Positions 1-43,197 of a stretch of 64,000 nt of DNA are shown here, piece after piece. The notes below the pieces were generated by a model, which saw only the letters and a list, made by a program, of their open reading frames with translations, did no database searches and was not told the DNA's origin. The stretch is from an uncultured virus (IMG/VR IMGVR_UViG_3300013947_000029). Taxonomy: Duplodnaviria > Heunggongvirae > Uroviricota > Caudoviricetes > Crassvirales. The position numbers and the translations under genes were made by a program. Numbering within the stretch: the first letter of the stretch is position 1; the number at the start of each line of letters is the position of its first letter. The stretch is from the IMG/VR virus record IMGVR_UViG_3300013947_000029; one strand, 5' to 3'.

Positions 1-73
1 AGCTGCTTCTACAGGTATGGTAGGTGCTGGTACTGCACCCTTCTATTTGGTATTTGCAGAGGATTATTTCGCT
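1..73 (+). CDS. MCP exon 1 (partial; frame from position 2: AASTGMVGAGTAPFYLVFAEDYFA)
   Basis: Not in the ORF track. Open frame ends in U73, which pairs with intron guide GGCG to give a U.G splice-site pair. Confidence 0.88.
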
Positions 74-3000
74 AAATACTTTGGCGCATTATAATGTAAG
101 TTATAATTGAAAATTGGGCAAAAACGGTGAAAGCTGAAATGCTAATACCGTGCTAATTTATAATGTAATAATTATAAATAGTGTAGAGAGTAGAGATTGA
201 AACTATGCGAGGGTTTATTTATATTATAAAAAATGATATTAATTCAAAAGTTTACATAGGACAGACCACAAGAGCTTTAAAAGATAGATGGAAAGAACAT
301 TTAAGGACTAAATGCTCCAAGAATGAAAACAGTATGCTTATAAAAAAGGCTATCCATAAATATGGCTCTTCTCATTTTAGGATAGAGTTATTAGAAGTTT
401 GTAATAAAGCTTCATTAAATGAAAGAGAGATGTATTACATACATCTATATAATTCATATCATCAAGGGTATAATAGAACTTTAGGAGGACAATCTGGTTC
501 TAAACCTATAAAACTTAAGAATAAACAAAATGAAATTGTTGAACTATATCAGTATGGTTTTTCAATTAAGTATTTAGCTCAAGAATATAATGTAGATAAA
601 GCTACTATTAAACATGTGTTATTAATTAATAATGTGACTATTAGAGATATTCGTTCTGTAAAATATTCTACAGAGGAGCGACAAGCTATATTAGAAGACA
701 CTAAGTTATTACCTAGAAATATAGTTATGAAAAAATGGAATATCTCAGCTAGTTATCTGTCACAACTTATAAATAACAAGCGTAGAATATAACATCTCCA
801 AGAGTGTCCAACACCCTTGATATAGGGTGAAAATGTACTCCGAACTATAGAGAATAAAATCTATAGAATTAAAGGATAAAGAGCCTTTAAGTTAACATAT
901 GAAAGGAGAGGTAATTTTTGGTAATCTAAATCAAGTATATCCTATTAGAATATTGGATGATGCAAGGCTTGAAGGAAGTAATGTGGTTTATCGGGTAGAG
1001 CTTATGGGTGGAAACCAAGCTGGTATACCTGTAGATAGACTGCAAGCTGGTGAAAGATTCTCTGTAGGATTTGCTCCTGTAGAAAGAGAGCTGTCAAGAA
1101 AAGTAGGAAGTGTAAGATTTAATACACCAGTATCTATGCGCAATGAATGGACTACTATTAGAATACATGCCAAAGTTACAGGTGCTATGCTTAATAGAAA
1201 ATTGGCTGTAGGTATTCCTATGAAGGATGAAAATACAGGTAAGACATTTATTGCTAATAAGTGGATAAACATAGTGTGTTCACTTGCAGCGTAAGTTGCA
1301 AAAAATAAATTCCTCTAATTGCTGGAAACTCCTGTTAGAGTATTTATACTACAAGTAAAAACAAAATAGTACATTAAATGTAAGGAATTATGACCAATGT
1401 AGAAATTGTAAAAAATATAAAGGGTTTTGAAGGAAGATATACAATATCTAATCTAGGTATTGTAAGAAGTTTACTTACTAATAAAGTAATGAAACTTAGC
1501 ATAACTTCTAAAGGTTATGCTAGAGTAAATCTTCGATATGCACATAGTAGAAAATTTAAGGCTTTCTTAGTACATAGATTAGTAGCAGGTAATTTTATTC
1601 CTAATCCTAATCATTATAAGGAATTAAATCATAAAGACTGTAATAGATTAAATAATAATGTCTCTAATTTAGAGTGGTGTGATAGAAGCTATAATGTGAA
1701 ATATTCATATTCAAAAGGCAAAGCTTCAAATAAAGGAGAAAAGAATCCAAATGCTAAGCTAAATTCTAAAGATGTTATGATTATAAAAGCTATGCTAAAA
1801 TCTAGAAAATATAGTCAAACTTATATAGCAAAGCTTTTTAAGGTACATCCTAATACAATTGGAATGATTAATACCAAAAATACTTGGAGTGATAATTAAA
1901 TACTAGGGACAATCAGCAGCTAAGACTTATTGTGAAATAAGTAAAGTTCAACGACTAGTAAGTCCTCTTAATGAGGCATAAGCCTAAGTAGGCTGAAATG
2001 GGGAACCCCTTTTAGGGTGAAGATATAGTCTAATCTTAATGGAAACATTAAGCTGGAAACAGGATTAATAGTAACGACATTAATTAAATAGTATAGTAAT
2101 ATACAATGGCACTATATGGATTGGGTATTGGAGCAGCAATGGGAAGACTACAAGAATCTTGCAATGGCTTGGGGTACTTCAAACCGTAATGCTAATGGCC
2201 AATACCTTAACTTTGGTGATTCAGGAGAAGCTATCAGGATGGGTAGTGGTCTTTTTGAACAAATGGAAGTTGCTGGTACTCAATATTATACAAACTTCTC
2301 ATTGAAAATGATTGAGAATGCTCTTACAGAACTTGTGGCTAATTCTAACCTCCCTATGAAGGATAGAATATTTGTACTTAGAACAGGTCTTAGAGGAGCT
2401 ACTCAATTTAGTAAAGCAGTGGGTGATACTGTGTCAGGGTGGACTCAATTTACAGTAAACGCAGATAACTTAGGCATTGTGCAGAAGACAAATAATGTAA
2501 TACATCCTAATGCTCTTGCAGCAGGTTATCAATTTACTGAATTTAGAGCACCTAATGGTATAATCATTAAAGTTGAAGTCGACAATTTTTATGACGACCC
2601 TGTAAGCAATAAGATGCAGCATCCTCTCGGAGGTCCTGCAAGTTCATATAGATATGACATTATGGAGATTGGTACTCCAGACCAGCCTAAATTATATTGG
2701 GCCTCATAGAGGTAACTCTATGATAAACTTTGAGCAAAAACGGTGAAATCTTCCAAGAATATTTGGGATAATAGCAGAAAAGTTTTGTACATTTGTACTT
2801 AAAATACAAGTACTATGTATAAAGAAATAGCAGGTTATAATGGTAGATATACCATAGATGATAAAGGTAATATTTATAGTAAAAACAGACTGATGAAACC
2901 TTTTAAAATAAACAGTGGCTATTTAGTTATTAAATTAACAAATAAGGGGAAATCCAAACATTATTTAATACACAGATTAGTTGCTGAATATTTTATAGGT

Positions 3001-4580
3001 AAACAAGAAGGTTTCGTAGTAGACCATATTGATGGTAATAGACTTAACAATAAAGTGGAGAATTTGAGGTATTGTACTCAAAAGGAAAATCTTTATTTTA
3101 AAGGCTTTGAGCATCATTCTGGAATAAATCACTATAACTCTGTTTTTACTATAGAAGATATTAAATACATTAGAGAATGTAGAGAAAAGAAAGGTATGAG
3201 AAATAGAGATATTTATTCTTTATATCCTAATGTATCACATACTGCTATAGACCAGGTATTAAACTATAAAAGTTATAGATAACACCGTGCTAACTTAATA
3301 TTTAACATTATTAAGTAGTGTAGAGAGTAGGACTTGAAACTATTAATAGAATATAATAGTCCCACGAGTGTTCAACATCTGTACAATATAGTACAGATGA
3401 AAATGTACTCCGAACTATAGTGATGGCAAAACTATAGAGTATCAAGATAAAGAGCTTGGTAGATAACATTATTTGAATATAATAAAGTGTGAGATTGAAG
3501 GACAACCTGAGTATAGAGGTATTCAAGCTGGTATGAGGAATCCTTTTACAGGAGCTATGGAAAATAACTTTATGAGTACTGACGAGGATAAACAATTAAT
3601 GTCCCTTAGTATAGAAATATACTAAAGCAAACAGGGCAAAAACGGTAAAAATCTATTTGAAATATTAAGTAATATATTCTATATACATGAGTAGTTTAGA
3701 TTATAAATATATAAAAGGTTATAATAATAAATATTATATCACTAGAGATGGTAAAGTATATATCTCTAATTATAGAAATACAGGTAAGCCTAAAGAAATG
3801 AAACCTAGAATAATAGCTGGATATTTAGCTTTAGGATTGGAAGGAAATACTGTAGAAGGTATTAGGAATCAAAAGATACATAAAATACATAGACTTATAG
3901 CAGAAGCTTTTGTTCCAAATCCAGAAAATAAGCCTTGTATTAATCATATTAATGGTAATAAATTAGATAATAGAGTTGAAAATTTAGAGTGGGTTACTAT
4001 AGAAGAAAATACTAGACATGCCTATGCTAATAAACTAGCACAATATTGGTGGACTAAAGAGCTAGGAATTGTATGTATAAACTTAATAGAAAATTACAAA
4101 TATAACTTTGCAGATGTTGCAAGATTATATAAGCTAAGTTCTAGACAAAATATCTGTTGGTTTTGGAAAAGTGGTTATAAAACTTTTAATCTAAAGCATT
4201 CTAACCCTTTTATTCCAAAACATAGTAAGAAGTTACCAATATCAGAGGAATATAAAAAATATATATTAAAGTTACTTGAAGACAATACCGTGCTAAATAA
4301 TCTTTCTAAAAGAAGATTATCAGTGTAACGAGTAGTAGCTGAACCCCTTTTAACTAAGGGAATATAATGTTACCACGAGTGTCCTGCACCTTAATTATAA
4401 ACATAAAAGGTGATAATATACTCTAAACTTATAGGATAATAAACTATAAGAGCTACAGATAAAGAGCTGTAGGATAATTACAATTTGAGTGCAACTATTC
4501 ATAAAATGGCTACATTTGGTGTAGCAGTTCTTGACCCAACAAGAACTATGTCCTTTATACCGTCTATATTACAAGGTTAA
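1..4580 (+). CDS. Major capsid protein (crAss-type), 5'-partial, split into five exons: join(<1..73,902..1266,2109..2688,3476..3589,4488..4580)
   Basis: From position 2 the exons total 1224 nt (407 codons + TAA). The junctions read LVFAEDYFA|KGEVIFG, ANKW(M)|HYMDW, GTPDQP|NIIKCEI and MSTDED|SATIHKMATFGVAVLDPTRTMSFIPSILQG*. This matches crAss-like MCP motifs as I recall them (not database-searched). Confidence 0.93.
74..901 (+). mobile_element. Group I self-splicing intron 1 (828 nt) with GIY-YIG endonuclease gene
   Basis: P1 cgcU/Ggcg; P10 cttt/aaag; P3 ttgggca/tgtccaa; P4 aacggt/ataccgt; R-like gtgtagagagtag (181-193); S-like aaaatgtactcc (830-841); terminal G901; phase-0 frame restoration. 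Confidence 0.92.
205..792 (+). CDS. Intron-encoded GIY-YIG homing endonuclease
   Basis: GFIY..KVYIGQT, DRWKEH, LNEREMYYI and GYN motifs, followed by HTH-like C-terminal segments. Confidence 0.93.
   Translation: MRGFIYIIKNDINSKVYIGQTTRALKDRWKEHLRTKCSKNENSMLIKKAIHKYGSSHFRIELLEVCNKASLNEREMYYIHLYNSYHQGYNRTLGGQSGSKPIKLKNKQNEIVELYQYGFSIKYLAQEYNVDKATIKHVLLINNVTIRDIRSVKYSTEERQAILEDTKLLPRNIVMKKWNISASYLSQLINNKRRI
902..1266 (+). CDS. MCP exon 2
   Basis: Corresponds to ORF 899..1294 without its intron-derived ends (KGEVIFGNLNQVYP...ANKW + AT). Confidence 0.9.
1267..2108 (+). mobile_element. Group I self-splicing intron 2 (842 nt; canonical IA-like core) with NUMOD4-HNH gene
   Basis: P aattgctggaaac (1317-1329), Q aatcagcagc (1911-1920), R gttcaacgactag (1946-1958), S aagatatagtct (2020-2031). 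P1 gtggaU/Gttcac; P10 atagtgt/gcactat; terminal G2108. Splicing forms the codon AT|G. Confidence 0.94.
1390..1899 (+). CDS. Intron-encoded NUMOD4/HNH homing endonuclease
   Basis: IKGFEGRYTISNLG (NUMOD4); VHRLVA..F..NHKDCNRLNNNVSNLEW (HNH_3); GEKNPNAKL + HTH. Confidence 0.93.
   Translation: MTNVEIVKNIKGFEGRYTISNLGIVRSLLTNKVMKLSITSKGYARVNLRYAHSRKFKAFLVHRLVAGNFIPNPNHYKELNHKDCNRLNNNVSNLEWCDRSYNVKYSYSKGKASNKGEKNPNAKLNSKDVMIIKAMLKSRKYSQTYIAKLFKVHPNTIGMINTKNTWSDN
2109..2688 (+). CDS. MCP exon 3
   Basis: G + HYMDWVLEQQW...AWGTSNRN...YDDPV...GTPDQP; overlaps ORF 2116..2709. Confidence 0.9.
2689..3475 (+). mobile_element. Group I self-splicing intron 3 (787 nt) with NUMOD4-HNH gene
   Basis: P1 gccU/Gggc; P10 ttatatt/aatataa; P3 ttgagca/tgttcaa; R gtgtagagagtag (3318-3330); S aaaatgtactcc (3400-3411); terminal G3475. 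Confidence 0.92.
2815..3282 (+). CDS. Intron-encoded NUMOD4/HNH homing endonuclease
   Basis: IAGYNGRYTI; IHRLVAEYF..VDHIDGNRLNNKVENLRY. Confidence 0.93.
   Translation: MYKEIAGYNGRYTIDDKGNIYSKNRLMKPFKINSGYLVIKLTNKGKSKHYLIHRLVAEYFIGKQEGFVVDHIDGNRLNNKVENLRYCTQKENLYFKGFEHHSGINHYNSVFTIEDIKYIRECREKKGMRNRDIYSLYPNVSHTAIDQVLNYKSYR
3476..3589 (+). CDS. MCP exon 4 (38 codons)
   Basis: NIIKCEIEGQPEYRGIQAGMRNPFTGAMENNFMSTDED; absent from the ORF track; bounded by G3475 and U3589. Confidence 0.9.
3590..4487 (+). mobile_element. Group I self-splicing intron 4 (898 nt) with HNH gene
   Basis: P1 ggaU/Gtcc; P3 cagggca/tgtcctg; Q aataccgtgc (4284-4293); R gtgtaacgagtag (4323-4335); S ataatatactct (4413-4424); terminal G4487. 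P10 is weak. Confidence 0.9.
3687..4328 (+). CDS. Intron-encoded NUMOD4/HNH homing endonuclease
   Basis: IKGYNNKYYI; IHRLIAEAFVPNPENKPCINHINGNKLDNRVENLEW. Confidence 0.93.
   Translation: MSSLDYKYIKGYNNKYYITRDGKVYISNYRNTGKPKEMKPRIIAGYLALGLEGNTVEGIRNQKIHKIHRLIAEAFVPNPENKPCINHINGNKLDNRVENLEWVTIEENTRHAYANKLAQYWWTKELGIVCINLIENYKYNFADVARLYKLSSRQNICWFWKSGYKTFNLKHSNPFIPKHSKKLPISEEYKKYILKLLEDNTVLNNLSKRRLSV
4488..4580 (+). CDS. MCP exon 5 (C-terminal 30 aa + TAA)
   Basis: SATIHKMATFGVAVLDPTRTMSFIPSILQG*; absent from the ORF track; followed by a terminator. Confidence 0.9.
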   Translation, partial: SATIHKMATFGVAVLDPTRTMSFIPSILQG

Positions 4581-4600
4581 TAGGACTATAAAATATAAGT

Positions 4601-4631
4601 AAAAAGGGGAGGAAGAATCCTCTCCTTTTTT
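4601..4631 (+). terminator. Intrinsic terminator after MCP
   Basis: Stem aaaaaggggagga / tcctctccttttt with U-tract. Confidence 0.8.
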
Positions 4632-4654
4632 AAATATAAAAAGATAATATAAAT

Positions 4655-5629
4655 ATGGCAAAGGAAGAGATAGAAGGAGTACTTAATAGTACTGAAAATA
4701 GTGAAACAGAAATGCCTAAAACAGGCAAAAGAGGTAGAAAAGCAACAGTTGAAGAAGAGGAACGCCCTTTAATAAACTGTCTTAGGAATGAAAGAGTAAT
4801 AGTAAGACATATTAATAAACCTAATAGCAGAATTACTAATCCAAAGCATGTGCTATATGGAGGTATGGCAGAAGGTGCAAAGAGGATTTTCTGTGTTCCT
4901 ATGTTATCTTCAGGAAGATACGTTAATGTGCTTACAGATGATGAAAAGAAGTTTCTTGAAAATATAATGGGACTTGAGCCTAATGCTCTTAGTATCTATA
5001 GAAAGGTAGACAACTTCTGGGATGATAGTAATAGTACAGGTATATCAAAAGTAGTACTTGGTAAACAAGATAATTATCTTGATTTAAGTACTCCAGAAGA
5101 TTATATCAAATATAAAATATTACTTGCTAATAAAGAGTATATAGCACCTTCCTTAGAGGAGCTTGAAAATATGCATAAAGCTACTTATCAATTTGTTATA
5201 ATCACAGAAAGTTCTGAGTCTAAGATGGCACAAGATAATATGTCTGTTACTATGAAATGTTATACTATGTATGGTAAACTTGAAGATAATATAGGAGCAT
5301 TAAGACATATTGTAGAAACTCTTACAGGTAATAGATTTTCATCTGTTACAAAAAAAGAGTTTCTTCAAACTAAGATTAATGAACTTATTCAAGCTAATCC
5401 AAAAACATTCCTCAAAGTAGCAACTGACCCAATGCTTAATACCAAAGTATTGATTAAAAAATGTGTTGAAGCAGGTCTTATAGCACAAAGAGGTAATCAG
5501 TACTATATTAGAGAAGGTAATGTGCCTATGTGTGATAATGGTGACCCTACATTAAATGTAGCTGCACAATGGCTTAATTTACCAAAGAATCAAACAATAA
5601 AACTTAGTTTAGAAGCTAAGTTACAATAA
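4655..5629 (+). CDS. Conserved crAss-like protein following MCP (function unknown)
   Basis: 324-aa ORF in the syntenic position between MCP and the ring proteins. Confidence 0.7.
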   Translation: MAKEEIEGVLNSTENSETEMPKTGKRGRKATVEEEERPLINCLRNERVIVRHINKPNSRITNPKHVLYGGMAEGAKRIFCVPMLSSGRYVNVLTDDEKKFLENIMGLEPNALSIYRKVDNFWDDSNSTGISKVVLGKQDNYLDLSTPEDYIKYKILLANKEYIAPSLEELENMHKATYQFVIITESSESKMAQDNMSVTMKCYTMYGKLEDNIGALRHIVETLTGNRFSSVTKKEFLQTKINELIQANPKTFLKVATDPMLNTKVLIKKCVEAGLIAQRGNQYYIREGNVPMCDNGDPTLNVAAQWLNLPKNQTIKLSLEAKLQ

Positions 5630-31689: not shown

Positions 31690-34600
31690 TTATTTTTTAC
31701 AAATATTATTCTCTTCATCTTCTACGGGGGCTTCAAAATCATCCAAATTTTGCTTTGTATTGCTATTACTATTATCTACTTCTTCTGGAATAAATAATGA
31801 ATCATTTTCTTCTGGAATATATAGTGAATCATCTACTTCTTCGGGAACTGCTGTGATATTATCACGATTATTAGAATTTTCACTATCTTCTTCTATAGTA
31901 GAATAGTAATTATTTGTAGACCCTTCTAATTGCTCTATTTCATTAGCCTTTTTATCGCTTATAGAGTCTGTTATATTGTCAGCTTTGTCATTTGTGTTAT
32001 CATCAAATGTAAGTACTTTATCTGCTAGTTCTTCAGCATCTGTTTGAGGTACTGCTGCTTCTTCTATATTGTCTTTCCCTAAGGCTTCTCTTACTTTACT
32101 AACATTAGAGGTATCACCAAAATCTTTTAAATTAGTATAATCAATCTCAGCGATAGTTTTTGTACTATCATAAAATGGGGTCCTTAATCCATTATAAGGC
32201 TTTCTTATATACATAGGCTCACTATCTAAAGAATTACTAGCTAAAACATACATACCACTATATTTACCATTTCTTATCATGATTATAGGAATATTAGATT
32301 TATCATATTTAGTGCTAATAGCAGCCAGTCCATTGGCATCTTCTAACTGCATTATAGCATTTCCATTTTCATCTTCATAAAACTTAAAATACTTAAGAAA
32401 TTTTTTATTTAAATTCTTAACATACCTAGGATTATTCATAAGAAATTGTAATACATAATTTTTCAAGTAATCATCAATTGCTTTAGACTCTAGTAATTGT
32501 TTATTTCTAGACTTAAGTACATTCAAATATCTAGGCATATTTTCATAGAAAGCATTACTAATGAATATACCATAATTACTATGCCCAAAATTAAAACCAC
32601 AGTAGTAATAGGCATAATTAAACAAATCTTCTGCAAATTGTACTACTTCTGGGTCTTTAGATGCTAGAAGCTGAGTTAATTCTTCTGAAAAATATTTTCT
32701 ACTTTTAGGAGAAACCTTTCCTACATTATTAAATGTGATTCCAGACTTAGTATTAGTGGACATACTTTTAATAATAGTCATATTTCTTACATTTAAATGT
32801 TTATAGTTTCCCCATTTATCTTTCTCTTCTAAAAAGAGTTTGAACTTTATAGGGAAATCATGTATGTAATAGTTTCTCTTCTCCATAATATCTTTACTAT
32901 CACTACCAAAACGAGAGTCAGCTCCTGAGAGTAAATACATTGTAAGTTCACTATAGAACATTCTAAGTTCTTTTACTGCTTTTGAGGAGGTTAAAGGGTT
33001 ACCAGTAAGATTGCTAAGTAGCTGTATAGCTTGCTGAACACTTGTAGTAAATTGAGGTAATAAATTATATTTTCCTAATAGAGAGTAAGCACTTGTAAGT
33101 CCTAAAGTGTAAAAGGCCTGCATTCTTGGCACTGCCTTACTTAAAAATTTCTCTCTGATATCGTTATCTGTAGTAGCATCTAAATCAATATCTATAAATT
33201 GTTCAAACCCTTGTATAGGGCTACTAGGATTTGCAATTAATGTGTCTCCTACCTTTTTAGTTACAGTATTTATAAAAGCTTGTGCTTTCATACGTTGCTG
33301 TGTTACTTCTGCAGTACTAATAGCTAAAGCCCCATTAGGAGAATCACATCTAGAAATATCTGTAGATTGATTAAGTAATAGACTTAAATTTTGGATATTC
33401 TGCATCCATCCTAAAAACATTCCTGCTTGTGTTTTATTTATTGGTTTATGTAGCCTGAAGTTAACTATCATTTCTACTATTTCTTCTATGTTTCCTTCAA
33501 AATCTTTCCAGTGCTTATAGCCTTCTGTTATATCAGCATCTTGTACTTTTAATTCTTTTATATGAGCTATTAAATCATCACAAGTATTAAGAATTCCTAC
33601 AGTTTGAGGGTCACAGCCTATCCTAGTTAAAAAAGCCACTCTTGCTATAGTTTTACCATTGGCATTCAAATCTCCAAGTGTAGGGTCTTTACCATTATCA
33701 GGAGAAGCAGATTGAAATTCTTTAGCATCATCACCAATTCTTTTCCCTGTAAGGGGTGATATTACAGGGTCTATATTAGTAACTGTAACTATAGGTTTTC
33801 CTAATAGCTTTATATTAAATTGAGATTCTGGATGTATAGATAATCCTCTACCATTATTTATAAACTGAAATTTATAATGACTTGAAGAACTTACAGCAAA
33901 CATACCTATAAGGTCATTACCATCCATAAGATTTCTGTGATTCTTAGCATAATCTATAATACTTAATGGGTCATCTACAGTAGCTTCTTTATCATAAAAA
34001 GATTCCAAAGCATTAATTCCATCATCTATAGTAGCATCTTTATAGTCTCTTCCATATTTATCTAAAACATATAAGAAACTATGTGCAGCTATTTCTTTCT
34101 TATGAGCATCATAGAACTTTTGTAAAGCTTTAGGGTCTTTCATTATTCTTTGTTCCCTAGAAGCATGTTTTACATTTTTGTAAGAGGAAGGAAGAAGAGA
34201 TAATTGACTGCCTGCACTAGAGCTAAGTATTTCTCTTATAAAGTCTATGAGCATATTATCTCTTATTTTCTTTCTGTCCTTTGTAGAATATCCTTTTAAT
34301 AAAGAAATATCTTCTATAGACATGCCTTTAGTTATTCTAGGAGAATAAGCTCTATAATACGGCATCTTATCAGGTATAGGATTTATATCAAGATACTCTT
34401 CAAAATCTTCATATTTTTCACTATAAAAATCTATTTCTTCTTGTGTAAGCCCTGTTTTTCTTCTTAGTTTATCTATAAGACTTTTAAGAGAGCTTTTATA
34501 TTCTTCATCAGAAGATTCACTATTATATAACTTATATAAGTAATTAGTAATACCTTTAATATAATTGGCATCTACTACTTCTCTTCTGAAATTTTTTAGC

Positions 34601-37600
34601 ATTAAAAATAATTTATCAATATCAAAGTCTGTACCTGACATAGTTATAATATCACTAGGTAATATCATTGCAGTACCAGCAGAGATAGGTAAGAATCCTT
34701 CGATTCTTAAATTAAAGATAGAACATTTATTTTCTGTAGGTATTCTATAACCTATTATTCTCAATAGCTCTTCATTTCCTTTTATTCTGTTATAATCTAT
34801 AGACCACCATGTTTCTCCAGATTCAGGGTCAACATGCTCTACTAAAACATCTTGTATAATACTTCTTTTATAAGCAGGCATATAGCAAGGAATATAGTCT
34901 ATACATTTATTACCTTTAGCATCTTTCTTATATTTTATTTTTAAGTTATTACTAAAACCAAAGTTAGATACTAAAACTATATTACCTCCATTAATCTTCT
35001 GTTTTTGTATAGCATTTTTAAATGCACTAAGTAATAATTCTTCTATTTTATTAGTAAGATTAGGATTATTAAATGGTATCTTAAAAGCAGTTCTTGTTTC
35101 ATTTAGTTGCAATGCTGCTTCAACATCACTACCATATTTAGGATTATTACGCATTTGTGCTAACAAAGAAGCTTGTAATTTTTCTATATTACTATATTCA
35201 TCTTTTATTTTAGAGAAGGAGTCTAATAATTGGTCAACTATAAGAGTATTGTAATATTTTACAGCTTCTTCCCTATTTAAGGTTTTCTTTACTCCTCCAA
35301 TATTTACTGTAATAGTAAAATCTTCTGGAAGGTCTGCAGGGATAATATTTCTAAGCTGAGAGCCAAATAAAGCCATCAAATCATCTTCTGTAAGATGGTC
35401 TCCAGAAGGCTGTACTACCATATAATCTGACAGTGGTACTATATGAAGTTTATCAGGGTTAAGTACCCATTGTTCTCCATCTTTCTTTAATACATCTAAT
35501 CCTATTTGGGAATAACAATCTAAATAGCCTTTTTCAGAATTTTCAAAATCTACTAGGTTAACAGCATTATTATATTGTTCCTGTGATATTTTTCCTTCTT
35601 TTAGAAGCTTATCTAAGTCGTAGAAATAATCAGTAATACTATCAGTAGATATATTATAGCCATTTACTTGTAGCCCTTTCTTTTGTAAAGCATTGAATCT
35701 ACTCTTGCTATAGGAAATATTAGTACTTTCAGAATATCCTTCCTTTACAACAGAATGGAAGTGTACCACATCAATATCATAATCTTCCATAAATTTTTGT
35801 AAGGCTCTTAATTGTGGGGAAGTATTAAGAGCAGAGCCCACAATACCAAACATTGAAGTCAAAAGGTATTCAGAGTTTTTATGTTGAGTTACTACTTTTT
35901 CATTTCTACCTCCTACTTTAATAGATTCATGACTAAATAAAAAAGGTTTTATATTATTCCATATTGCAAAGAAATCTTTTAAATCCAGTCTATGTTCCAC
36001 AGTCATTCTATAATAAGCCTCATCCATATCTTTAGTCCACTTTCCTCCCATAGCTTCTAGTACTTTCTTCATACCTTTAGCTGTTCTAAGGGATTGACCA
36101 TCTGTAGTACAAATATCAGTATAAGCTTTTAATGTGCCAAGGATAATATCTTTAGTAAGTGGAGATGTTCCAACATTAGATTCTAATAGCTCTTTAATCT
36201 CCTCATAGGAGTTAGAAACTCTAAAAGAGTCTTCAATATAAAGGGAATGTTCCATTATTTTGCCTTTATTATGGCCCTGCTCATCCATTTCATAACCATA
36301 AACTCTGTCTCCAGCAGCATAGGCTTGCTTATTCCTTTTAATAAAGTCTCTAAAATTTTTATAGTATGCCAAATCTCCACCTAGTAACTGTATTATTTGG
36401 GACTGAGCAAAATAATCATTATAGAAAAACTCTATAAGCAGCTTTTCTATATCTTCTTTTTGCTGCTTTTTAAGTTCTTTTTTCTCTTTAGCATCTTCTT
36501 CATCCCAAATAATATCTTCTGAACTATTACTATCCTTAGATTTCCCTAAATTTGTGTAGTTCTGTAATATAGTGTTTCTACGTTTCTCATCAATACTATT
36601 AAGAAATTCCTGTAATTTACCCCCCTCTCTAAGTCCTGTAATAGGATTTATAGGGCCTTCAATTATATCAGCTAGTAGATTAATTAAATAGTTTTGACTT
36701 TTTTCTTTGAATTCTACACTATTTAAAGAAGTAAATCCTGAGTAGGTATTAATTACTTCATCAAGTTTACTATTTAATGCAGGGAAGAAATTAAACTTAG
36801 CACCATTAGTTTTTCCCTCATTATAAAATTCAATTCTTCTGATGTTTTTATTACGATTATTACGTACATCTATTATTCTTTCTATTTCTTGTCTTAAAAC
36901 TTTAGAAAGATTATATAGTATTTTTTGTTTATAATCTTTTCCTGTATATCTAACTCCTTTAAATAATACAGAAGCAGCAGTGTCAGAGAATAAAGGATTT
37001 CTATACCATCCATATGTTGTACCATGACTATCAGTATTACCTTGAAAAAAGGCCATAATGAAACCATCTATAAGGGATTCAGTATCTGTTTTACCTACAG
37101 AATGGGATTCATCTTCATCTCCTTTAAAAGATAATAGATTTAGTATTTTAAAATTCTTTCTTATACTATAATCTCCAAAGTCTCCTTCTTCATACAGTTG
37201 TTGTGCCCAAGTATTATACCACTCTCCTGTTTTTTGATTCCTAAAGAAGTCATACTGGCCGAAGTTTTCTTGTAGCCATTGTGTTCCCCTTTCTATTGCT
37301 TCTTTACTATCTACTTTTTGTAAGAGATTTGTCATTCTAGTAATATAATCATATGCAGTATAGCTATTCATAGTATTACCAGCAAATCTAAAGACATTTT
37401 GAGAATATCCTTCACTAGCAATAGTAAGTGCACTACCTATTGCTAAATAAGCATTTTGAAATTTCTTTACTAGATTATCTTTTGCTTGATACCCTAATGT
37501 AGGTCTAGTAATAATAATAGCCATTTCTAGAATATTCTTAATTCTATTTTTCATGTCTTTAGTAAATAGGCTGTTAAAGTATTCTACAGGAGTCATATTA

Positions 37601-40600
37601 TGGTCATCTGCTTCCTCTATAAAATCTACTGTAAAATCTTCAGACAACATTCCATCTTCTTGTACTTCAAAAGCTTCTATATTAGGGATTAAAGCTTCAA
37701 GATTTACATCATTAGTATCTACTCCTAGATTGTTTAATAGGCTTTCTAATGATATTTTAGGGTATTTAGGATGTTCACCTCTTAGTATTTGTAATACTAC
37801 TGCAAGATTTTGAGGAGTGCTATTTTTCCTATCTAATATACCATTTACATAGGCAAAAGGAACTTTGCTAATATCTTCTTTCTTATCTTTTTTTATAAGT
37901 AAATGATATAAACTAGCTACATTACCTGCATTTCTAGTACCATCTTCATTATATATAGAATTATTACCTATAACAAAGTGTCCTTCATAATTTTTTGTGA
38001 CCTGCTCTAGGAAAGTAGAAGATTTATTATCTCTATTTTTATAGGTAAGTCTACCATTATTTCCTATAATAGCAAAAGTAGTGAAACTCTTGCAAGACCT
38101 GAAAAACTCTTTTCTAAAATCAATATCAAAAGCTGTAGGGTTATAAGGATTGAATACTACATTATCTTTTAATTCTTGTAACCAAGGATAGTTGTTTACA
38201 GCTGTTTCAAACATATTATCTAGTTCTTCTTCTGAACTTATATTTTGAAATTCCTGCAATACTATGTAGTAAGCTACCATAGGATTAAGCTTTACTCTAA
38301 TTCCCAGAGAATTAAAGTAATACTCAATATCATTAGCTCTTTTAGTATTAGTGTTTATTTTATAAATATGTGCAAGTTTGTTTTTAAATTTCACTGAGAT
38401 AGTATCTATAGGATTTAAAAGCTTATATTTAATCATATAGCCTTCCTTATTTGGATTCTCTAGCTCATTCTGCACATCTTGTTCTTTATCAGTAATTTCC
38501 TCTTGGGATTCTGAAACATTCCCAGTAGTGTCTAATCTTAGATTTTCATTAAACTCAATATCAAAAGCAGCTTCTTTTATTAGAGCATCAAACACATTTT
38601 CATTTGTAAAATGTTTAGTAAAATATCCCTTTAAATACCGTACTCTAAAAATGGCTTTTTCCTTAATATTTTTATAGTTCCATCCCCTTTGCTGTGCTTC
38701 ATAATAAAATTCTCTTCCTAAATAAGAATCTGTATTAATAGAATCATCTTCCTTATTTAAAAAGTAATTATATACTAATTGCTCTATATCTTCAGTATTC
38801 TTAAAATCATCTATAAGAGATTTGATGTTATCAAATATTTGTAGAGGCAATGGTTTACTTCCAACATTAAGTCCTAGTAAAAATAGTCTTTGCTGTGCTT
38901 CAGTGCCTTTATTAAGTCCTGCAGAAATTCTATCATATACCTCGTCTCCTAAGCTTTCTCTATATGTTTCTTCATTATCTATAAGAGATTGTTTAAAGTC
39001 ATTTAATGTTTTGCCTAGTACAAGGCTAAAATAGTCTGACACAAAAGATACAGCAGCTATTCTTTCACTAACATTAGGAAAGGCATTACTAAGAGTATCT
39101 ATAGGAACACTATTAGGGTCAATAGCATCAAGAGGAGATACAGGCCTTTCTGCTTTAGCACTTTCAATAGCTTCTTCAAGTTTTTTCTTTGCTTCTTCCT
39201 CTCTTTGCTTTTTTAAGTCCTCTTTTCTTAAGGCTGATTTCTTAACTATATAAGAAACATAGTTTTGTTGAAAATGGTCTTTAGAAGCATCATAGTTATT
39301 TCCATATAAATCCTTAGCAGAACTTGAAAGAACAGAACCTCCAAATTTCTTTACTTCAGAAGGATTGGCTAATAAATAATTTTCAAGCAAATAATTAATA
39401 CCAATCATACTTCTAATATCTGTAGTTTTAGACTCTTTACTTAAATCCTGAAATCCAGCTCCTGGTGCTACTTGTATTCTATTACCCTTCTTGGTTACTA
39501 TAACAATTTCAGTAGGTGAATAATCTTCCATATCTTGGTCTGTAGGAGATTCAATATGGTGTATAGATATTCCTGAATCCTCTGCATATTGTTTTCTTTT
39601 ATCTTCATTAATCTTAGTAATATTAAAAGGATTAGATGTAGGGGCTTTGTCGAAGTAATCACTACTACCTGTATAATCATCAATACCTCCCCTTAAATCC
39701 TTATTAGCAGCATTAAAGTACTCTTGAGATATAGACATAATCTCTTCTAAAGCAGAGTTTTTAAGTTCTATCCCTTGTGCTTTGAATACTTTATTAAATA
39801 GATTTGTGATATAGTTTATAAACCTTTTAAAAGCATTCTCTTTCTTATCTATCTTTATTTTACTAAGCACTATTTGAAATTCTCTATTAGTTAGAGCTTC
39901 AGCTATAAATTCTTTAGCATTAGTTAAACCATACCATTCAGTTCCTTTTAATTGCTCTTTGCATTGAAGATATAAATTCCATGTATTAGTTGTAAACTCT
40001 GTTTGTGCCTCATTAAATCCTTTTATTTTAGACCAAGAAGGATGATAATTTAAGATTTCAGCAGTAACAGAATGTACCAATTCATGTGTTAATACCTTCA
40101 TTAGATTTCCTTTTATATTATTTCTATCATCAGTCATTAGATATTCTAATAATAATAAAGGATTGAATCTTATAGTAGCTGTTTTAAAACCATCTTGTTT
40201 TCTTGCTGCTATACTTTGTAATGAAGAATCTATCTCTATATTAATAGGAATATCATTATTCCTTAATATCCCAACAATTTGTTTAAATAGTTGGTGATAA
40301 GGATTGCCAGGTTTTGCTTTACTTAAAAGGTCATCTATTAAAGAGTTATCAAGAGTTATTCCCTCTTTTTTCAAGATATCTAAGGCATCTTTACCTCTCC
40401 TTTTAGTTTTTTCTTTCTCTGCAATTTTTCTTTGTCTAAGTATTTCTCTTTTAATATCTGACTCATACTTTTTACTCATTAGTTCCTCTTGAGGTAAATT
40501 CATATTGGTCATCATTAAAGTTATTGTTGAAATACATTCTGCTTCAGTAAGATTGCTTATAGTATCTTTCCCTATAATATCTTCAATTTTTTGTTTTGTA

Positions 40601-40626
40601 ATTCCAAATGAACAACTTATACCCAT
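31690..40626 (-). CDS. Virion-packaged DNA-dependent RNA polymerase (single chain, two-barrel type)
   Basis: SGTDFDIDK (DFDID at 34615-34629), YRIPTE, TDGQ, GSQLR, DNGKDP; N-terminal HELVH. ATG 40626 is preferred over TTG 40659, which overlaps the promoter. Confidence 0.9.
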   Translation of the reverse strand: MGISCSFGITKQKIEDIIGKDTISNLTEAECISTITLMMTNMNLPQEELMSKKYESDIKREILRQRKIAEKEKTKRRGKDALDILKKEGITLDNSLIDDLLSKAKPGNPYHQLFKQIVGILRNNDIPINIEIDSSLQSIAARKQDGFKTATIRFNPLLLLEYLMTDDRNNIKGNLMKVLTHELVHSVTAEILNYHPSWSKIKGFNEAQTEFTTNTWNLYLQCKEQLKGTEWYGLTNAKEFIAEALTNREFQIVLSKIKIDKKENAFKRFINYITNLFNKVFKAQGIELKNSALEEIMSISQEYFNAANKDLRGGIDDYTGSSDYFDKAPTSNPFNITKINEDKRKQYAEDSGISIHHIESPTDQDMEDYSPTEIVIVTKKGNRIQVAPGAGFQDLSKESKTTDIRSMIGINYLLENYLLANPSEVKKFGGSVLSSSAKDLYGNNYDASKDHFQQNYVSYIVKKSALRKEDLKKQREEEAKKKLEEAIESAKAERPVSPLDAIDPNSVPIDTLSNAFPNVSERIAAVSFVSDYFSLVLGKTLNDFKQSLIDNEETYRESLGDEVYDRISAGLNKGTEAQQRLFLLGLNVGSKPLPLQIFDNIKSLIDDFKNTEDIEQLVYNYFLNKEDDSINTDSYLGREFYYEAQQRGWNYKNIKEKAIFRVRYLKGYFTKHFTNENVFDALIKEAAFDIEFNENLRLDTTGNVSESQEEITDKEQDVQNELENPNKEGYMIKYKLLNPIDTISVKFKNKLAHIYKINTNTKRANDIEYYFNSLGIRVKLNPMVAYYIVLQEFQNISSEEELDNMFETAVNNYPWLQELKDNVVFNPYNPTAFDIDFRKEFFRSCKSFTTFAIIGNNGRLTYKNRDNKSSTFLEQVTKNYEGHFVIGNNSIYNEDGTRNAGNVASLYHLLIKKDKKEDISKVPFAYVNGILDRKNSTPQNLAVVLQILRGEHPKYPKISLESLLNNLGVDTNDVNLEALIPNIEAFEVQEDGMLSEDFTVDFIEEADDHNMTPVEYFNSLFTKDMKNRIKNILEMAIIITRPTLGYQAKDNLVKKFQNAYLAIGSALTIASEGYSQNVFRFAGNTMNSYTAYDYITRMTNLLQKVDSKEAIERGTQWLQENFGQYDFFRNQKTGEWYNTWAQQLYEEGDFGDYSIRKNFKILNLLSFKGDEDESHSVGKTDTESLIDGFIMAFFQGNTDSHGTTYGWYRNPLFSDTAASVLFKGVRYTGKDYKQKILYNLSKVLRQEIERIIDVRNNRNKNIRRIEFYNEGKTNGAKFNFFPALNSKLDEVINTYSGFTSLNSVEFKEKSQNYLINLLADIIEGPINPITGLREGGKLQEFLNSIDEKRRNTILQNYTNLGKSKDSNSSEDIIWDEEDAKEKKELKKQQKEDIEKLLIEFFYNDYFAQSQIIQLLGGDLAYYKNFRDFIKRNKQAYAAGDRVYGYEMDEQGHNKGKIMEHSLYIEDSFRVSNSYEEIKELLESNVGTSPLTKDIILGTLKAYTDICTTDGQSLRTAKGMKKVLEAMGGKWTKDMDEAYYRMTVEHRLDLKDFFAIWNNIKPFLFSHESIKVGGRNEKVVTQHKNSEYLLTSMFGIVGSALNTSPQLRALQKFMEDYDIDVVHFHSVVKEGYSESTNISYSKSRFNALQKKGLQVNGYNISTDSITDYFYDLDKLLKEGKISQEQYNNAVNLVDFENSEKGYLDCYSQIGLDVLKKDGEQWVLNPDKLHIVPLSDYMVVQPSGDHLTEDDLMALFGSQLRNIIPADLPEDFTITVNIGGVKKTLNREEAVKYYNTLIVDQLLDSFSKIKDEYSNIEKLQASLLAQMRNNPKYGSDVEAALQLNETRTAFKIPFNNPNLTNKIEELLLSAFKNAIQKQKINGGNIVLVSNFGFSNNLKIKYKKDAKGNKCIDYIPCYMPAYKRSIIQDVLVEHVDPESGETWWSIDYNRIKGNEELLRIIGYRIPTENKCSIFNLRIEGFLPISAGTAMILPSDIITMSGTDFDIDKLFLMLKNFRREVVDANYIKGITNYLYKLYNSESSDEEYKSSLKSLIDKLRRKTGLTQEEIDFYSEKYEDFEEYLDINPIPDKMPYYRAYSPRITKGMSIEDISLLKGYSTKDRKKIRDNMLIDFIREILSSSAGSQLSLLPSSYKNVKHASREQRIMKDPKALQKFYDAHKKEIAAHSFLYVLDKYGRDYKDATIDDGINALESFYDKEATVDDPLSIIDYAKNHRNLMDGNDLIGMFAVSSSSHYKFQFINNGRGLSIHPESQFNIKLLGKPIVTVTNIDPVISPLTGKRIGDDAKEFQSASPDNGKDPTLGDLNANGKTIARVAFLTRIGCDPQTVGILNTCDDLIAHIKELKVQDADITEGYKHWKDFEGNIEEIVEMIVNFRLHKPINKTQAGMFLGWMQNIQNLSLLLNQSTDISRCDSPNGALAISTAEVTQQRMKAQAFINTVTKKVGDTLIANPSSPIQGFEQFIDIDLDATTDNDIREKFLSKAVPRMQAFYTLGLTSAYSLLGKYNLLPQFTTSVQQAIQLLSNLTGNPLTSSKAVKELRMFYSELTMYLLSGADSRFGSDSKDIMEKRNYYIHDFPIKFKLFLEEKDKWGNYKHLNVRNMTIIKSMSTNTKSGITFNNVGKVSPKSRKYFSEELTQLLASKDPEVVQFAEDLFNYAYYYCGFNFGHSNYGIFISNAFYENMPRYLNVLKSRNKQLLESKAIDDYLKNYVLQFLMNNPRYVKNLNKKFLKYFKFYEDENGNAIMQLEDANGLAAISTKYDKSNIPIIMIRNGKYSGMYVLASNSLDSEPMYIRKPYNGLRTPFYDSTKTIAEIDYTNLKDFGDTSNVSKVREALGKDNIEEAAVPQTDAEELADKVLTFDDNTNDKADNITDSISDKKANEIEQLEGSTNNYYSTIEEDSENSNNRDNITAVPEEVDDSLYIPEENDSLFIPEEVDNSNSNTKQNLDDFEAPVEDEENNICKK

Positions 40627-40656
40627 ATTGCATAATTTTATTTTATGTAGTTTCTG

Positions 40657-40687
40657 CAAATATACAGTTTTATTCTTATTTTACAAA
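40657..40687 (-). promoter_or_regulatory. Bacteroidota sigma-A-type promoter for the RNAP gene
   Basis: Minus strand reads TTTG-N19-TATATTTG, matching the -33/-7 consensus, 30 nt upstream of ATG 40626. Confidence 0.7.
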
Positions 40688-41396: not shown

Positions 41397-41531
41397 TTAC
41401 TCTTTATTTTTATGTTCAAAATCTTCACATATAGGGTCATTAGGTTGTGTCTCTGTATATAAGTCTTTTATAAGACAGTAACTAAATGTCTCACTTTGCT
41501 CAAACCATTCACAATCCTTACAGTATTTCAT
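41397..41531 (-). CDS. Small Cys-rich protein (44 aa; not in ORF track)
   Basis: MKYCKDCEWF...YC...ICEDFEHKNKE*; ATGA overlap with the upstream gene. Confidence 0.65.
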   Translation of the reverse strand: MKYCKDCEWFEQSETFSYCLIKDLYTETQPNDPICEDFEHKNKE

Positions 41532-41800
41532 ACTTTATGCTCTTCATTCCATTCTTTATTCCATGGTTTATCAGGCATCAATTGCTGTATTACCTTAATA
41601 TTAGTAATATCAGCTTCTATATACCCATCATCCCAAGTTAAATCGACCCCTGTAAGAAGTCTTATAGTACCACTTTCAAGATGCACCTCATTATCTCCCA
41701 TAGGTAGCCATATATTACTATCATCTCTTAAAGGAGGTTTATCAAAAGCTCCCTCTACGTTATCTGACATTATATCATCTACTGCAAAATATACTTTCAT
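41528..41800 (-). CDS. Hypothetical protein
   Basis: Tightly packed ORF in the operon. Confidence 0.65.
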   Translation of the reverse strand: MKVYFAVDDIMSDNVEGAFDKPPLRDDSNIWLPMGDNEVHLESGTIRLLTGVDLTWDDGYIEADITNIKVIQQLMPDKPWNKEWNEEHKV

Positions 41801-41801
41801 A

Positions 41802-42050
41802 TTAAATTTCTGAATTATAGGTTTCTATGTAATCTCCACAACATTCACAAGGCTCATCAATACTTGTATATTCTCCATATTGTACAATAAACCATTGTAA
41901 TAAATAGTTTAGTTCATCAGGGTTTTGTTTTAGCCAATCAGCTATTTTATTCATAGCTTCCTGTCTTTCAGTATCTGTTAAATTAATTTCTTCTTTACCA
42001 TCTACTGTAAGACTATCACAAACACACCCTCTTACTAATTGTAAATTCAT
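41802..42050 (-). CDS. Hypothetical protein, possible Zn-binding
   Basis: CVC and CECC motifs. Confidence 0.65.
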   Translation of the reverse strand: MNLQLVRGCVCDSLTVDGKEEINLTDTERQEAMNKIADWLKQNPDELNYLLQWFIVQYGEYTSIDEPCECCGDYIETYNSEI

Positions 42051-42292
42051 TCTTCTATTACTGTAAAATCATCAACACACCAATCAAGAAATTCTTCAGA
42101 AGGAAGAGTAATTTGCTCTTTTACATAATCTTCTAAATTGTATTCTTCAGCATCTATAGGAACATCTATAGTTCTAGTAGTACTTAAAGTTTCTGATATA
42201 GTTACCTCTATTTCCTTTGTTTCAGTACCTTTATTATAAGGAGCTCTGGGGTCATATTGAGCTCCTGCTGGATAATCACCATCTTGTGTCAT
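42047..42292 (-). CDS. Hypothetical acidic protein
   Basis: YPAGAQYDPRAPYN N-terminus; ATGA overlaps at both ends. Confidence 0.65.
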   Translation of the reverse strand: MTQDGDYPAGAQYDPRAPYNKGTETKEIEVTISETLSTTRTIDVPIDAEEYNLEDYVKEQITLPSEEFLDWCVDDFTVIEE

Positions 42293-43197
42293 AACAAATG
42301 TTTTTCTTCAAATAGTTTATATAATTTATCAGCTAATTCTGCTGCTTGTGGATGAGGTTTACCTGTCTTAGCTAAGAAAGAGCATCTTTGATTAAAGAAA
42401 TCTTGCCAATCACTTACAAAACCTGTCATATATAGCTCACATTTAGTAGCTAATGGAAGTATATTTCTTGCCTGTTCAGGTTTCCATCCTTCTTCTATAA
42501 GTTTTAAATAAGAATCTTCAGCATCTAAAAGCTGTTGTATAAAAACTTCAGCATCTTTAGAGTAGAGAAAATTACTAAAAGTCTCTTTAATAACTTCATT
42601 AAAAGTCTCTTTAGTAACTGCTATTTGACCTCTTATGTCTAACCATTGTGGCATAATATAGATAAGCTCATTATTAAATTTATCCTTAGAGTAGTTGTTG
42701 AATCTAGTACTCTCCATGCAGAAACTAAATTTCCTATGCCTTGTAAGCTCTTGTGCTATGGCTCTATCACAGATAAACCTTGCTGTAACTCTAGCAGAGT
42801 GATATTCACTAGGTTCAGTTATAAACTCTAGTAAACCATGCATTTGATTTTCTAGCAATACTCTATAGTTTGTAGTAATATAGAGATATTTATCTCCATC
42901 ATGTTCATCTATATAACTTATAGAGTAAGGATTTTTATTAAAGAAATCTACTAATGCATAAAACTCCTCTCTACCAGAAGTCTTATAATCAGGAATAGTA
43001 AGATATACAGTACCATGCTCTAAAGGAGCATAGTGCCTGGATTCTATAAGTCTTCTTACAAAAGGAGTGGCAGAATCCTCTGATATACTATGAGTAGATT
43101 GATAACATACTTTACCTGCTTTTTCAATCTGCTTATATACTCCTAATAATCCTATCTCTTGTGATAATATTTCTACAGATGGTTCTATTAATTTCAT
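42289..43197 (-). CDS. thyX: Flavin-dependent thymidylate synthase
   Basis: H..PLEH, ELTRHRKFSFCMESTR, ARNILP, HPQ. Confidence 0.92.
   Translation of the reverse strand: MKLIEPSVEILSQEIGLLGVYKQIEKAGKVCYQSTHSISEDSATPFVRRLIESRHYAPLEHGTVYLTIPDYKTSGREEFYALVDFFNKNPYSISYIDEHDGDKYLYITTNYRVLLENQMHGLLEFITEPSEYHSARVTARFICDRAIAQELTRHRKFSFCMESTRFNNYSKDKFNNELIYIMPQWLDIRGQIAVTKETFNEVIKETFSNFLYSKDAEVFIQQLLDAEDSYLKLIEEGWKPEQARNILPLATKCELYMTGFVSDWQDFFNQRCSFLAKTGKPHPQAAELADKLYKLFEEKHLL

Follow-up and report, generated by a model that had tools for sequence, protein, structure and literature searches.

When the capsid gene of a phage appears in a metagenomic contig as a row of fragments with endonuclease genes between them, one question comes before all others: is the gene broken, or is it put together again at the level of RNA? 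The question is raised by a 64,000-nucleotide (nt) stretch of DNA, here called the window, of an uncultured virus of the order Crassvirales (IMG/VR record IMGVR_UViG_3300013947_000029). Positions 1-4580 of its plus strand contain five short or medium-sized open frames separated by four open reading frames (ORFs) of 155-213 amino acids (aa), and the original prediction, made from the letters alone, interpreted this arrangement as a major capsid gene split by four endonuclease-bearing group I introns. Our analysis leads to the same view, with every proposed coordinate correct: window 2-4580 very probably represents a major capsid gene, from a Steigviridae-like crAss phage, that is interrupted by four mobile group I introns.

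The identity of the gene follows from its two longer frames. Frames 899-1294 and 2116-2709 match the Pfam family PF23898 (Crass_capsid) over profile positions 121-240 and 242-429, respectively, with exon 2 scoring 141.7 bits and exon 3 scoring 229.4 bits against a cut-off of 27, and the five exons (Table 1) cover a Crassvirales major capsid gene except for its first fifth. Removal of the introns, which total 3355 nt, leaves 1224 nt that read as 407 codons and a stop with no internal stops, exactly as had been predicted. The spliced protein is colinear with the capsid proteins of IAS virus and cr85_1, which are uninterrupted; none of the four junctions coincides with a gap in this alignment, and all are flanked by conserved capsid motifs. 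Its identity to annotated Steigviridae capsid proteins is 60-69%, the closest named ones being those of cr116_1 (69%) and IAS virus (68%); by these nearest named relatives, the window phage belongs to Steigviridae, which we take to be the Beta group of crAss-like phages. Exons 1, 4 and 5 correspond to ORFs of 30, 50 and 31 aa, so that an ORF track with a 60-aa threshold would miss three of the five exons, in agreement with the original prediction. The possibility that the introns contain a spare copy of the downstream capsid residues was also considered and ruled out: the read-through tails of exons 2, 3 and 4 do not resemble the next exons.

The splice sites conform to the group I pattern that had been described for them. 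The last base is T in every 5' exon and G in every intron (positions 901, 2108, 3475 and 4487), and minimum free energy (MFE) folds of the 5' splice regions yield P1 hairpins in which the terminal U of the exon pairs with a G of the internal guide in each of the four cases (U73-G83, U1266-G1278, U2688-G2699 and U3589-G3601). The P1 of intron 2 consists of at least 8 base pairs, and the z-scores of the P1 folds of introns 1-4 are -2.7, -2.75, -1.4 and -1.2. The junctions of introns 1 and 4 are based on the protein alignment together with the U and G rules, and could slide by 1-3 bases with the same resulting mRNA, since each of these introns has a repeated A or AAA at its two ends.

Stronger evidence for the junctions comes from near-identical strains in which some of these sites are naturally empty. 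In an IMG/VR contig that is 99.6-99.9% identical to the window (L124), position 1266 is joined to 2109 and 2688 to 3476, introns 2 and 3 being absent to the base. A 101-kb metagenome contig (L149, 99.7-99.8% identical) lacks exactly 2689-3475, and a 99-kb contig (L150, 99.8% identical) contains intron 3 with about 390 nt deleted (window 2767-3156), a deletion by which the HNH ORF is largely lost, whereas the ribozyme parts remain. Introns 1 and 4 occur, with identical boundaries, in every near-identical contig that covers them (intron 4 in all four sequences), intron 2 is common to the window and two contigs, and intron 3 to the window and L150. Contigs L149 and L150 also extend beyond the left edge of the window, where the start of the capsid gene lies 587 nt upstream of window position 1. 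Here, an 18-codon first exon precedes a 300-nt intron that has no ORF and belongs to the family of introns 1, 3 and 4 (family profile E 3e-38); next comes a 306-nt exon, the end of which is window 2-73. Thus, the suggestion that further introns may lie upstream holds for these two sister contigs: the full gene in this lineage consists of six exons and up to five introns, and the tally per near-identical strain is 5, 4, and 3 or fewer.

The same four sequences carry linked substitutions around the polymorphic sites. Single-nucleotide polymorphisms (SNPs) at 2368, 2595 and 3481 sort them exactly by the status of intron 3, and only L124, the sole allele without intron 2, has the SNPs at 1261 and 2112, which lie five bases before and four bases after the site of that intron. 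By our codon reading, the junction-adjacent SNPs (1261, 2112 and 3481) are synonymous; G1261 lies within the P1 of intron 2. Such linkage to intron status is as expected from co-conversion of flanking exons during homing. In L124 alone, an extra A is found opposite window 729/730 in the GIY-YIG ORF of intron 1, which shifts the frame of the last ~20 codons and may reflect either early decay of the endonuclease gene or a sequencing error.

As to the class of the introns, the Rfam covariance model for group I introns, RF00028, bore out the prediction for intron 2 and missed introns 1, 3 and 4. Intron 2, when scanned alone, reaches 55.1 bits, above the cut-off of 50, with E 1.1e-13, on 1895-2052 and model positions 74-253, and its group I class is well supported by this curated model. 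The alignment begins at the 3' strands of P5 and P4, just past the ORF, and complementary segments upstream of the ORF, 1310-1315 and 1319-1324, were assigned by eye as the 5' strands of P3 and P4; therefore, the ORF is placed in the P5 region. The core of this intron is 72-79% similar to DNA of 340 phage records, mostly of Staphylococcus, Vibrio and Bacillus phages.

Introns 1, 3 and 4 have sequence blocks in common and form a family distinct from intron 2. A 15-nt motif taken from them was searched in IMG/VR viral contigs, yielding at least 119 stretches, most of them chance matches; 23 stretches were picked by eye as intron-like, and 17 ORF-less relatives of approximately 250-300 nt were aligned, with L015, L026, L044, L046, L047 and L121 left out as ORF-holding or incomplete in the stretch. 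RNAalifold alone recovered P3, P4, P6, P7.1, P8 and P9.1 from this alignment, with compensatory changes in 22 of 38 pairs, and our full structure model adds P1, P2, P5, P9 and the P7 pseudoknot. Under the resulting group I model, 86.2% of the cells of the alignment are paired vs 32-44% in slid controls, 41 of the 68 pairs change on both sides, and the observed covariation score was not reached by any of 500 shuffles. The covarying helices are P3, P6, P7.1 and P8, to which P7 contributes one covarying pair.

With the ORFs looped out, most of the 68 model pairs are kept in the window introns themselves (Table 1). All pairs of P3, P4, P7 and P7.1 are retained in the three introns, and all of P6 in introns 1 and 4; the lost pairs are mainly those of P1 and P2, owing to alignment slips, and of the variable P5 and P9. 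P3 differs compensatorily between introns 1, 3 and 4, and P7 has an A-U pair in the window introns where all 17 relatives have C-G. A profile (nhmmer) of the 17 relatives matches introns 1, 3 and 4 (E 2e-13 to 4e-24), with no further match in the 64 kb, and the relative most similar to intron 4 (L087) matches RF00028 over its full length with 53.2 bits. Covariation and homology together make the predicted group I class of introns 1, 3 and 4 well supported. The family has an extra helix between P7 and the 3' strand of P3 and is, for this reason, presumably IA-like, a label that relies on the P7.1 insertion and on known phage introns.

Members of this family are also encountered elsewhere. ORF-less members interrupt one same coding sequence in several unrelated IMG/VR viral contigs (L037, L052, L061, L082, L090, L101 and L112), among which the text of the downstream exon is conserved, and short matches to the family core lie outside the capsid genes, in unannotated stretches, of cr116_1 (NC_055882.1, 35187-35235) and cr6_1 (NC_055894.1, 60388-60462).

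The ORFs of all four introns contain homing endonuclease domains. PF01541 scores 40.2 bits on ORF 205-792 (curated cut-off 22.6), PF13392 scores 27.1, 57.3 and 45.0 bits on ORFs 1390-1899, 2815-3282 and 3687-4328 (cut-off 24.8), and PF07463 scores 42.9 and 28.5 bits on ORFs 1390-1899 and 2815-3282 (cut-off 23.4). The three HNH proteins share just 30-41% identity pairwise, hence their introns are not recent duplicates. In introns 1, 3 and 4, the ORFs can be placed relative to the helices: that of intron 1 is flanked by the strands GAGAU and AUCUC, which align to P7.1 of the family, that of intron 3 by P4 strands at ~2741-2746 and ~3284-3289, and the 3' end of that of intron 4 overlaps the 3' strand of P4 and P6. 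Among the other 39 ORFs of at least 90 aa in the window, a Pfam search detected no homing endonuclease domains, so every endonuclease gene and every intron-family member of the 64 kb falls in the capsid gene.

Table 1. Exons, introns and intron-encoded ORFs of the capsid gene in the window
Feature	Position	Strand	Evidence
Capsid exon 1 (3' end of an exon beginning upstream)	2..73	+	Open frame from window start; aligns to IAS virus residues 102-119; ends in U73
Intron 1, 828 nt, group I, family of introns 3 and 4	74..901	+	Family profile on 109-201 (E 2e-13) and 785-899 (E 5e-17); 54/68 pairs; ends in G901
GIY-YIG homing endonuclease ORF, 195 aa	205..792	+	PF01541, E 4.2e-10, plus HTH_7; in P7.1 loop of intron 1
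Capsid exon 2, 365 nt	902..1266	+	Crass_capsid profile 121-240, E 3e-41; in L124 joined straight to 2109
Intron 2, 842 nt, group I, family distinct from the other three	1267..2108	+	RF00028, 55.1 bits
NUMOD4/HNH_3 homing endonuclease ORF, 169 aa	1390..1899	+	PF07463, E 6e-11; PF13392, E 3e-6; P5 region of intron 2
Capsid exon 3, 580 nt	2109..2688	+	Crass_capsid profile 242-429, E 8.5e-68
Intron 3, 787 nt, group I, family of introns 1 and 4	2689..3475	+	Family profile on 3276-3469, E 3.6e-24; 62/68 pairs
NUMOD4/HNH_3 homing endonuclease ORF, 155 aa	2815..3282	+	PF13392, E 1.2e-15; PF07463, E 1.8e-6; P5 loop of intron 3
Capsid exon 4, 114 nt	3476..3589	+	Aligns to IAS virus residues 437-474
Intron 4, 898 nt, group I, family of introns 1 and 3	3590..4487	+	Family profile on 4279-4477 (E 4e-24) and 3593-3655 (E 6e-4); 53/68 pairs
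HNH_3 homing endonuclease ORF, 213 aa	3687..4328	+	PF13392, E 8e-12; P5 loop of intron 4
Capsid exon 5 (final), 30 codons and TAA	4488..4580	+	90% identical to IAS virus residues 475-504

Several observations weigh against this interpretation. The Rfam search of the whole window at gathering thresholds gave no match, probably because the long ORFs break up the cores; the scan of 1-5000 with E values up to 10 gave weak small RNA and snoRNA matches only, RF00028 not being among them, and this model did not match the contiguous 3' part of intron 3 (3278-3480) either. It was passed by only one of the eight ORF-less relatives that were scanned, and the upstream intron of L149 scores 15.5 bits, below the cut-off. 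Therefore, for introns 1, 3 and 4, membership in group I depends on our own structure model and its covariation. The relatives were chosen by eye from at least 119 loci, and as they had been retrieved with a 15-nt motif of the window, part of P3, J3/4 and P4 is invariant from the outset. For introns 3 and 4, many shuffled sequences fold as well as the P1 hairpin, so that the support from P1 is weak for these two. The MFE fold of the ORF-deleted intron 2 did not produce a group I architecture; such a fold is uninformative because the group I core is pseudoknotted, which is why the 5' strands of P3 and P4 had to be assigned by eye. Finally, the 5' end of the capsid gene falls outside the window.

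How exceptional is such a gene among its relatives? We compared it with 30 related capsid loci, a set that is not random (4 come from BLAST hits, 1 from the motif scan and 25 from a related-locus search). Among these, 23 are uninterrupted in the covered part and the other 7 have one or two interruptions, so that the window has the highest intron count of the 31 loci. In IAS virus numbering, ten capsid positions are occupied altogether, 18/19, 61, 119/120, 148/149, 189/190, ~244, 288, 436/437, 456/457 and 474/475, the window accounting for 119/120, ~244, 436/437 and 474/475. An exact 41-nt pattern from exon 1 had no match in viral contigs. In one 65.6-kb IMG/VR contig (L047), positions 1-3015 contain a crAss-type capsid gene that is interrupted after residues 148 and 288, the second interruption being a member of the 1/3/4 family with a GIY-YIG-like ORF.

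Introns in capsid genes of crAss-like phages have been described, as the original prediction acknowledged in calling the class not new. Group I introns were found to be typical of the capsid, PolB and primase genes of the Delta group, and a capsid gene of the Zeta group was found in five fragments, with endonuclease domains of group I introns (Yutin et al. 2021, Nat Commun 12:1044, PMC7886860); crAss-like capsid introns were restated in a 2023 review (PMC10136315). As in those phages, the Crassvirales major capsid gene of the window is split in five, with endonuclease-coding inserts, and the claim that the arrangement is unusual cannot be upheld, given the published five-fragment gene and the capsid introns typical of Delta (PMC7886860). 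In that study, the intron-rich groups named are Delta and Zeta, and introns were called from protein domains only; unlike there, the case of the window comes with ribozyme cores, exact junctions and strain-level gain and loss, with five introns in sister contigs. Within the literature searched, we found no report of strain-level intron polymorphism in crAss-like capsid genes. The locus is a dense example of a phenomenon already published for crAss-like phages and reveals no new mechanism; what is added is a Steigviridae example, exact junctions, and a natural series of intron gain, intron loss and endonuclease decay.

Closer to the window, two Steigviridae genomes, cr111_1 (Lahndsivirus) and cr116_1 (Pamirivirus), have capsid genes annotated in GenBank in two or three pieces that are separated by homing or HNH endonuclease genes. 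These capsid genes contain one and two interruptions, located after IAS virus residues 148, 61 and 456; the window contains four, at other codons. The capsid intron of cr111_1 (L001, 6001-6839) shares 83.9% identity with parts of window intron 1, but it interrupts the gene after residue 148 instead of 119, and the similarity of its endonuclease to the GIY-YIG protein of the window extends over only 54 aa, so that similar ribozymes reside at different capsid sites with different ORFs. The classical phage group I introns with homing endonucleases are those of T4 td, nrdB and sunY and of the SPO1 DNA polymerase gene, and the three introns in Twort orf142. The window introns have much in common with them: compact ribozymes, presumably of IA type in the window, GIY-YIG or HNH ORFs looped out from peripheral helices, sites in conserved parts of essential genes, and, by the SNP pattern, probable co-conversion of the flanking exon. 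Unlike these classical cases, the target here is the capsid gene of a Bacteroidota phage, and the number of introns per gene is higher.

Outside Crassvirales, the Jug (jumbo gut) phages of Bacteroides and Phocaeicola have 18.5 group I introns per genome on average, and of the 76 introns predicted, 37 were confirmed as spliced on the basis of metatranscriptome reads (PMC12880540). They share with the window phage the gut habitat, the abundance of group I introns and the location of HNH, GIY-YIG or LAGLIDADG endonucleases in essential genes, but belong to another lineage, the split genes named there include terL, nrdD and DNA polymerase, and their introns average ~206 nt (PMC12880540). An intron in a capsid gene, with splicing reported, is also known from the unrelated mycobacteriophages of Cluster J (Pope et al. 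2013, PMC3706429).

The above data can be accommodated in the following scenario. The late capsid transcript would be a single precursor, from which the introns would remove themselves by guanosine-initiated, two-step transesterification, and five such splicings would give one mRNA for an HK97-type capsid protein of ~500 aa. The products of the intron ORFs would be DNA endonucleases, each specific for a site in the capsid gene, that cleave the alleles of co-infecting relatives lacking the intron, whereupon repair would copy the intron, along with some of the flanking exon, into the cut allele (homing). The introns would then be selfish passengers that reside in conserved capsid motifs rather than a regulatory device. 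That near-identical strains have fewer introns, and that an endonuclease gene is decaying in one of them, argues for such selfish gain and loss as opposed to a fixed regulatory function.

A bolder version of this scenario, which we regard as doubtful, is that the stack of four endonucleases serves as a battery in the competition between near-identical crAss strains sharing a host, each enzyme cutting those rivals that lack its intron. If that were the case, the late gene of the rival would be either crippled or converted, with flanking capsid sequence dragged along, the polymorphic strains (5, 4, and 3 or fewer introns) would represent moments in a contest that is still under way, and the evolution of the capsid gene in abundant gut phages would be driven, in part, by intron homing.

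It is improbable, in our opinion, that the number of introns matters as such, be it that five serial splicings act as a timer or gate of capsid production, as the original prediction proposed for the four events then seen, or that the four endonucleases are weapons against intron-less co-infecting strains. One could invoke here the confinement of all endonuclease genes and intron-family members of the 64 kb to one gene, the linkage of SNPs to intron status, which suggests that homing between co-circulating strains has happened, and the reported interference of an intron endonuclease of PhiPA3 with a competing phage (PMC11620839). However, strains 99.6-99.9% identical to the window have fewer introns, one with a decaying endonuclease gene, so no particular intron is needed, and most of the related capsid loci (23 of 30) are uninterrupted in the covered part. 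The proposal of a regulatory gate is unsupported, and the distribution is that of selfish gain and loss.

Could it be, then, that there is no splicing at all, and the capsid gene is simply broken by free-standing endonuclease genes, as a pseudogene or as a set of separately expressed fragments? The GenBank records of relatives do annotate the pieces as separate 'major head protein' coding sequences. Nevertheless, we consider this very unlikely: one junction falls within a codon (exon 902-1266 stops two bases into it), exon pieces of only 30-38 codons hold conserved capsid motifs and have accumulated no stops, the boundaries match the empty sites of sister strains to the base, a conserved ribozyme core surrounds each endonuclease ORF, and none of the other ORFs of the window looks like a second capsid gene. 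An assembly artefact, in which the introns would be chimeric joins from mixed strains or other phages of the metagenome, is extremely unlikely. The strains do differ in the presence of introns 2 and 3, and from such mixtures assemblers can produce mosaics, but introns 1 and 4 have the same boundaries in all independent contigs covering them, intron 2 recurs in two contigs and intron 3, shortened, in L150, and the insertions are precise, their removal restoring the frame. The chance that the insertions are inteins (known in crAss-like phages, for example in TerL; PMC7886860) or group II introns is negligible, since the capsid frame meets stops at 94, 1294, 2709 and 3625, a few codons into each insertion, which excludes protein splicing, and neither a reverse transcriptase or maturase domain (Pfam) nor a group II family (Rfam scans of the window and of 1-5000) was matched.

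The interpretation as one capsid gene with mobile group I introns has practical consequences. Gene callers report the sole capsid gene of such a phage as fragments and endonucleases, and exact junctions allow the real protein to be reconstructed. The four almost identical sequences, in which individual introns are present, missing or decaying, appear to document recent homing and the onset of endonuclease loss. The family concerned consists of abundant, mostly uncultured gut phages and is not named among the intron-rich groups in the paper on crAss capsid introns (PMC7886860).

The remainder of the window is occupied by an ordinary PhiCrAss001-type gene set, which includes ring proteins, an auxiliary capsid protein, tail hub, muzzle and cargo proteins, giant ORFs, PolA, NrdD and others. 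The segment 40660-42288, bordered by a minus-strand ORF of 2989 aa (31690-40659) and a minus-strand ThyX-like ORF (42289-43197), contains a single ORF of at least 90 aa (41496-41813), with no Pfam match. Directly 3' of the capsid stop codon (4578-4580), a terminator-like, GC-rich hairpin followed by a T run can be read on the plus strand at 4603-4631, and the weak Rfam matches to the small RNAs SpF25, sraA and STnc40 all fall on this hairpin.

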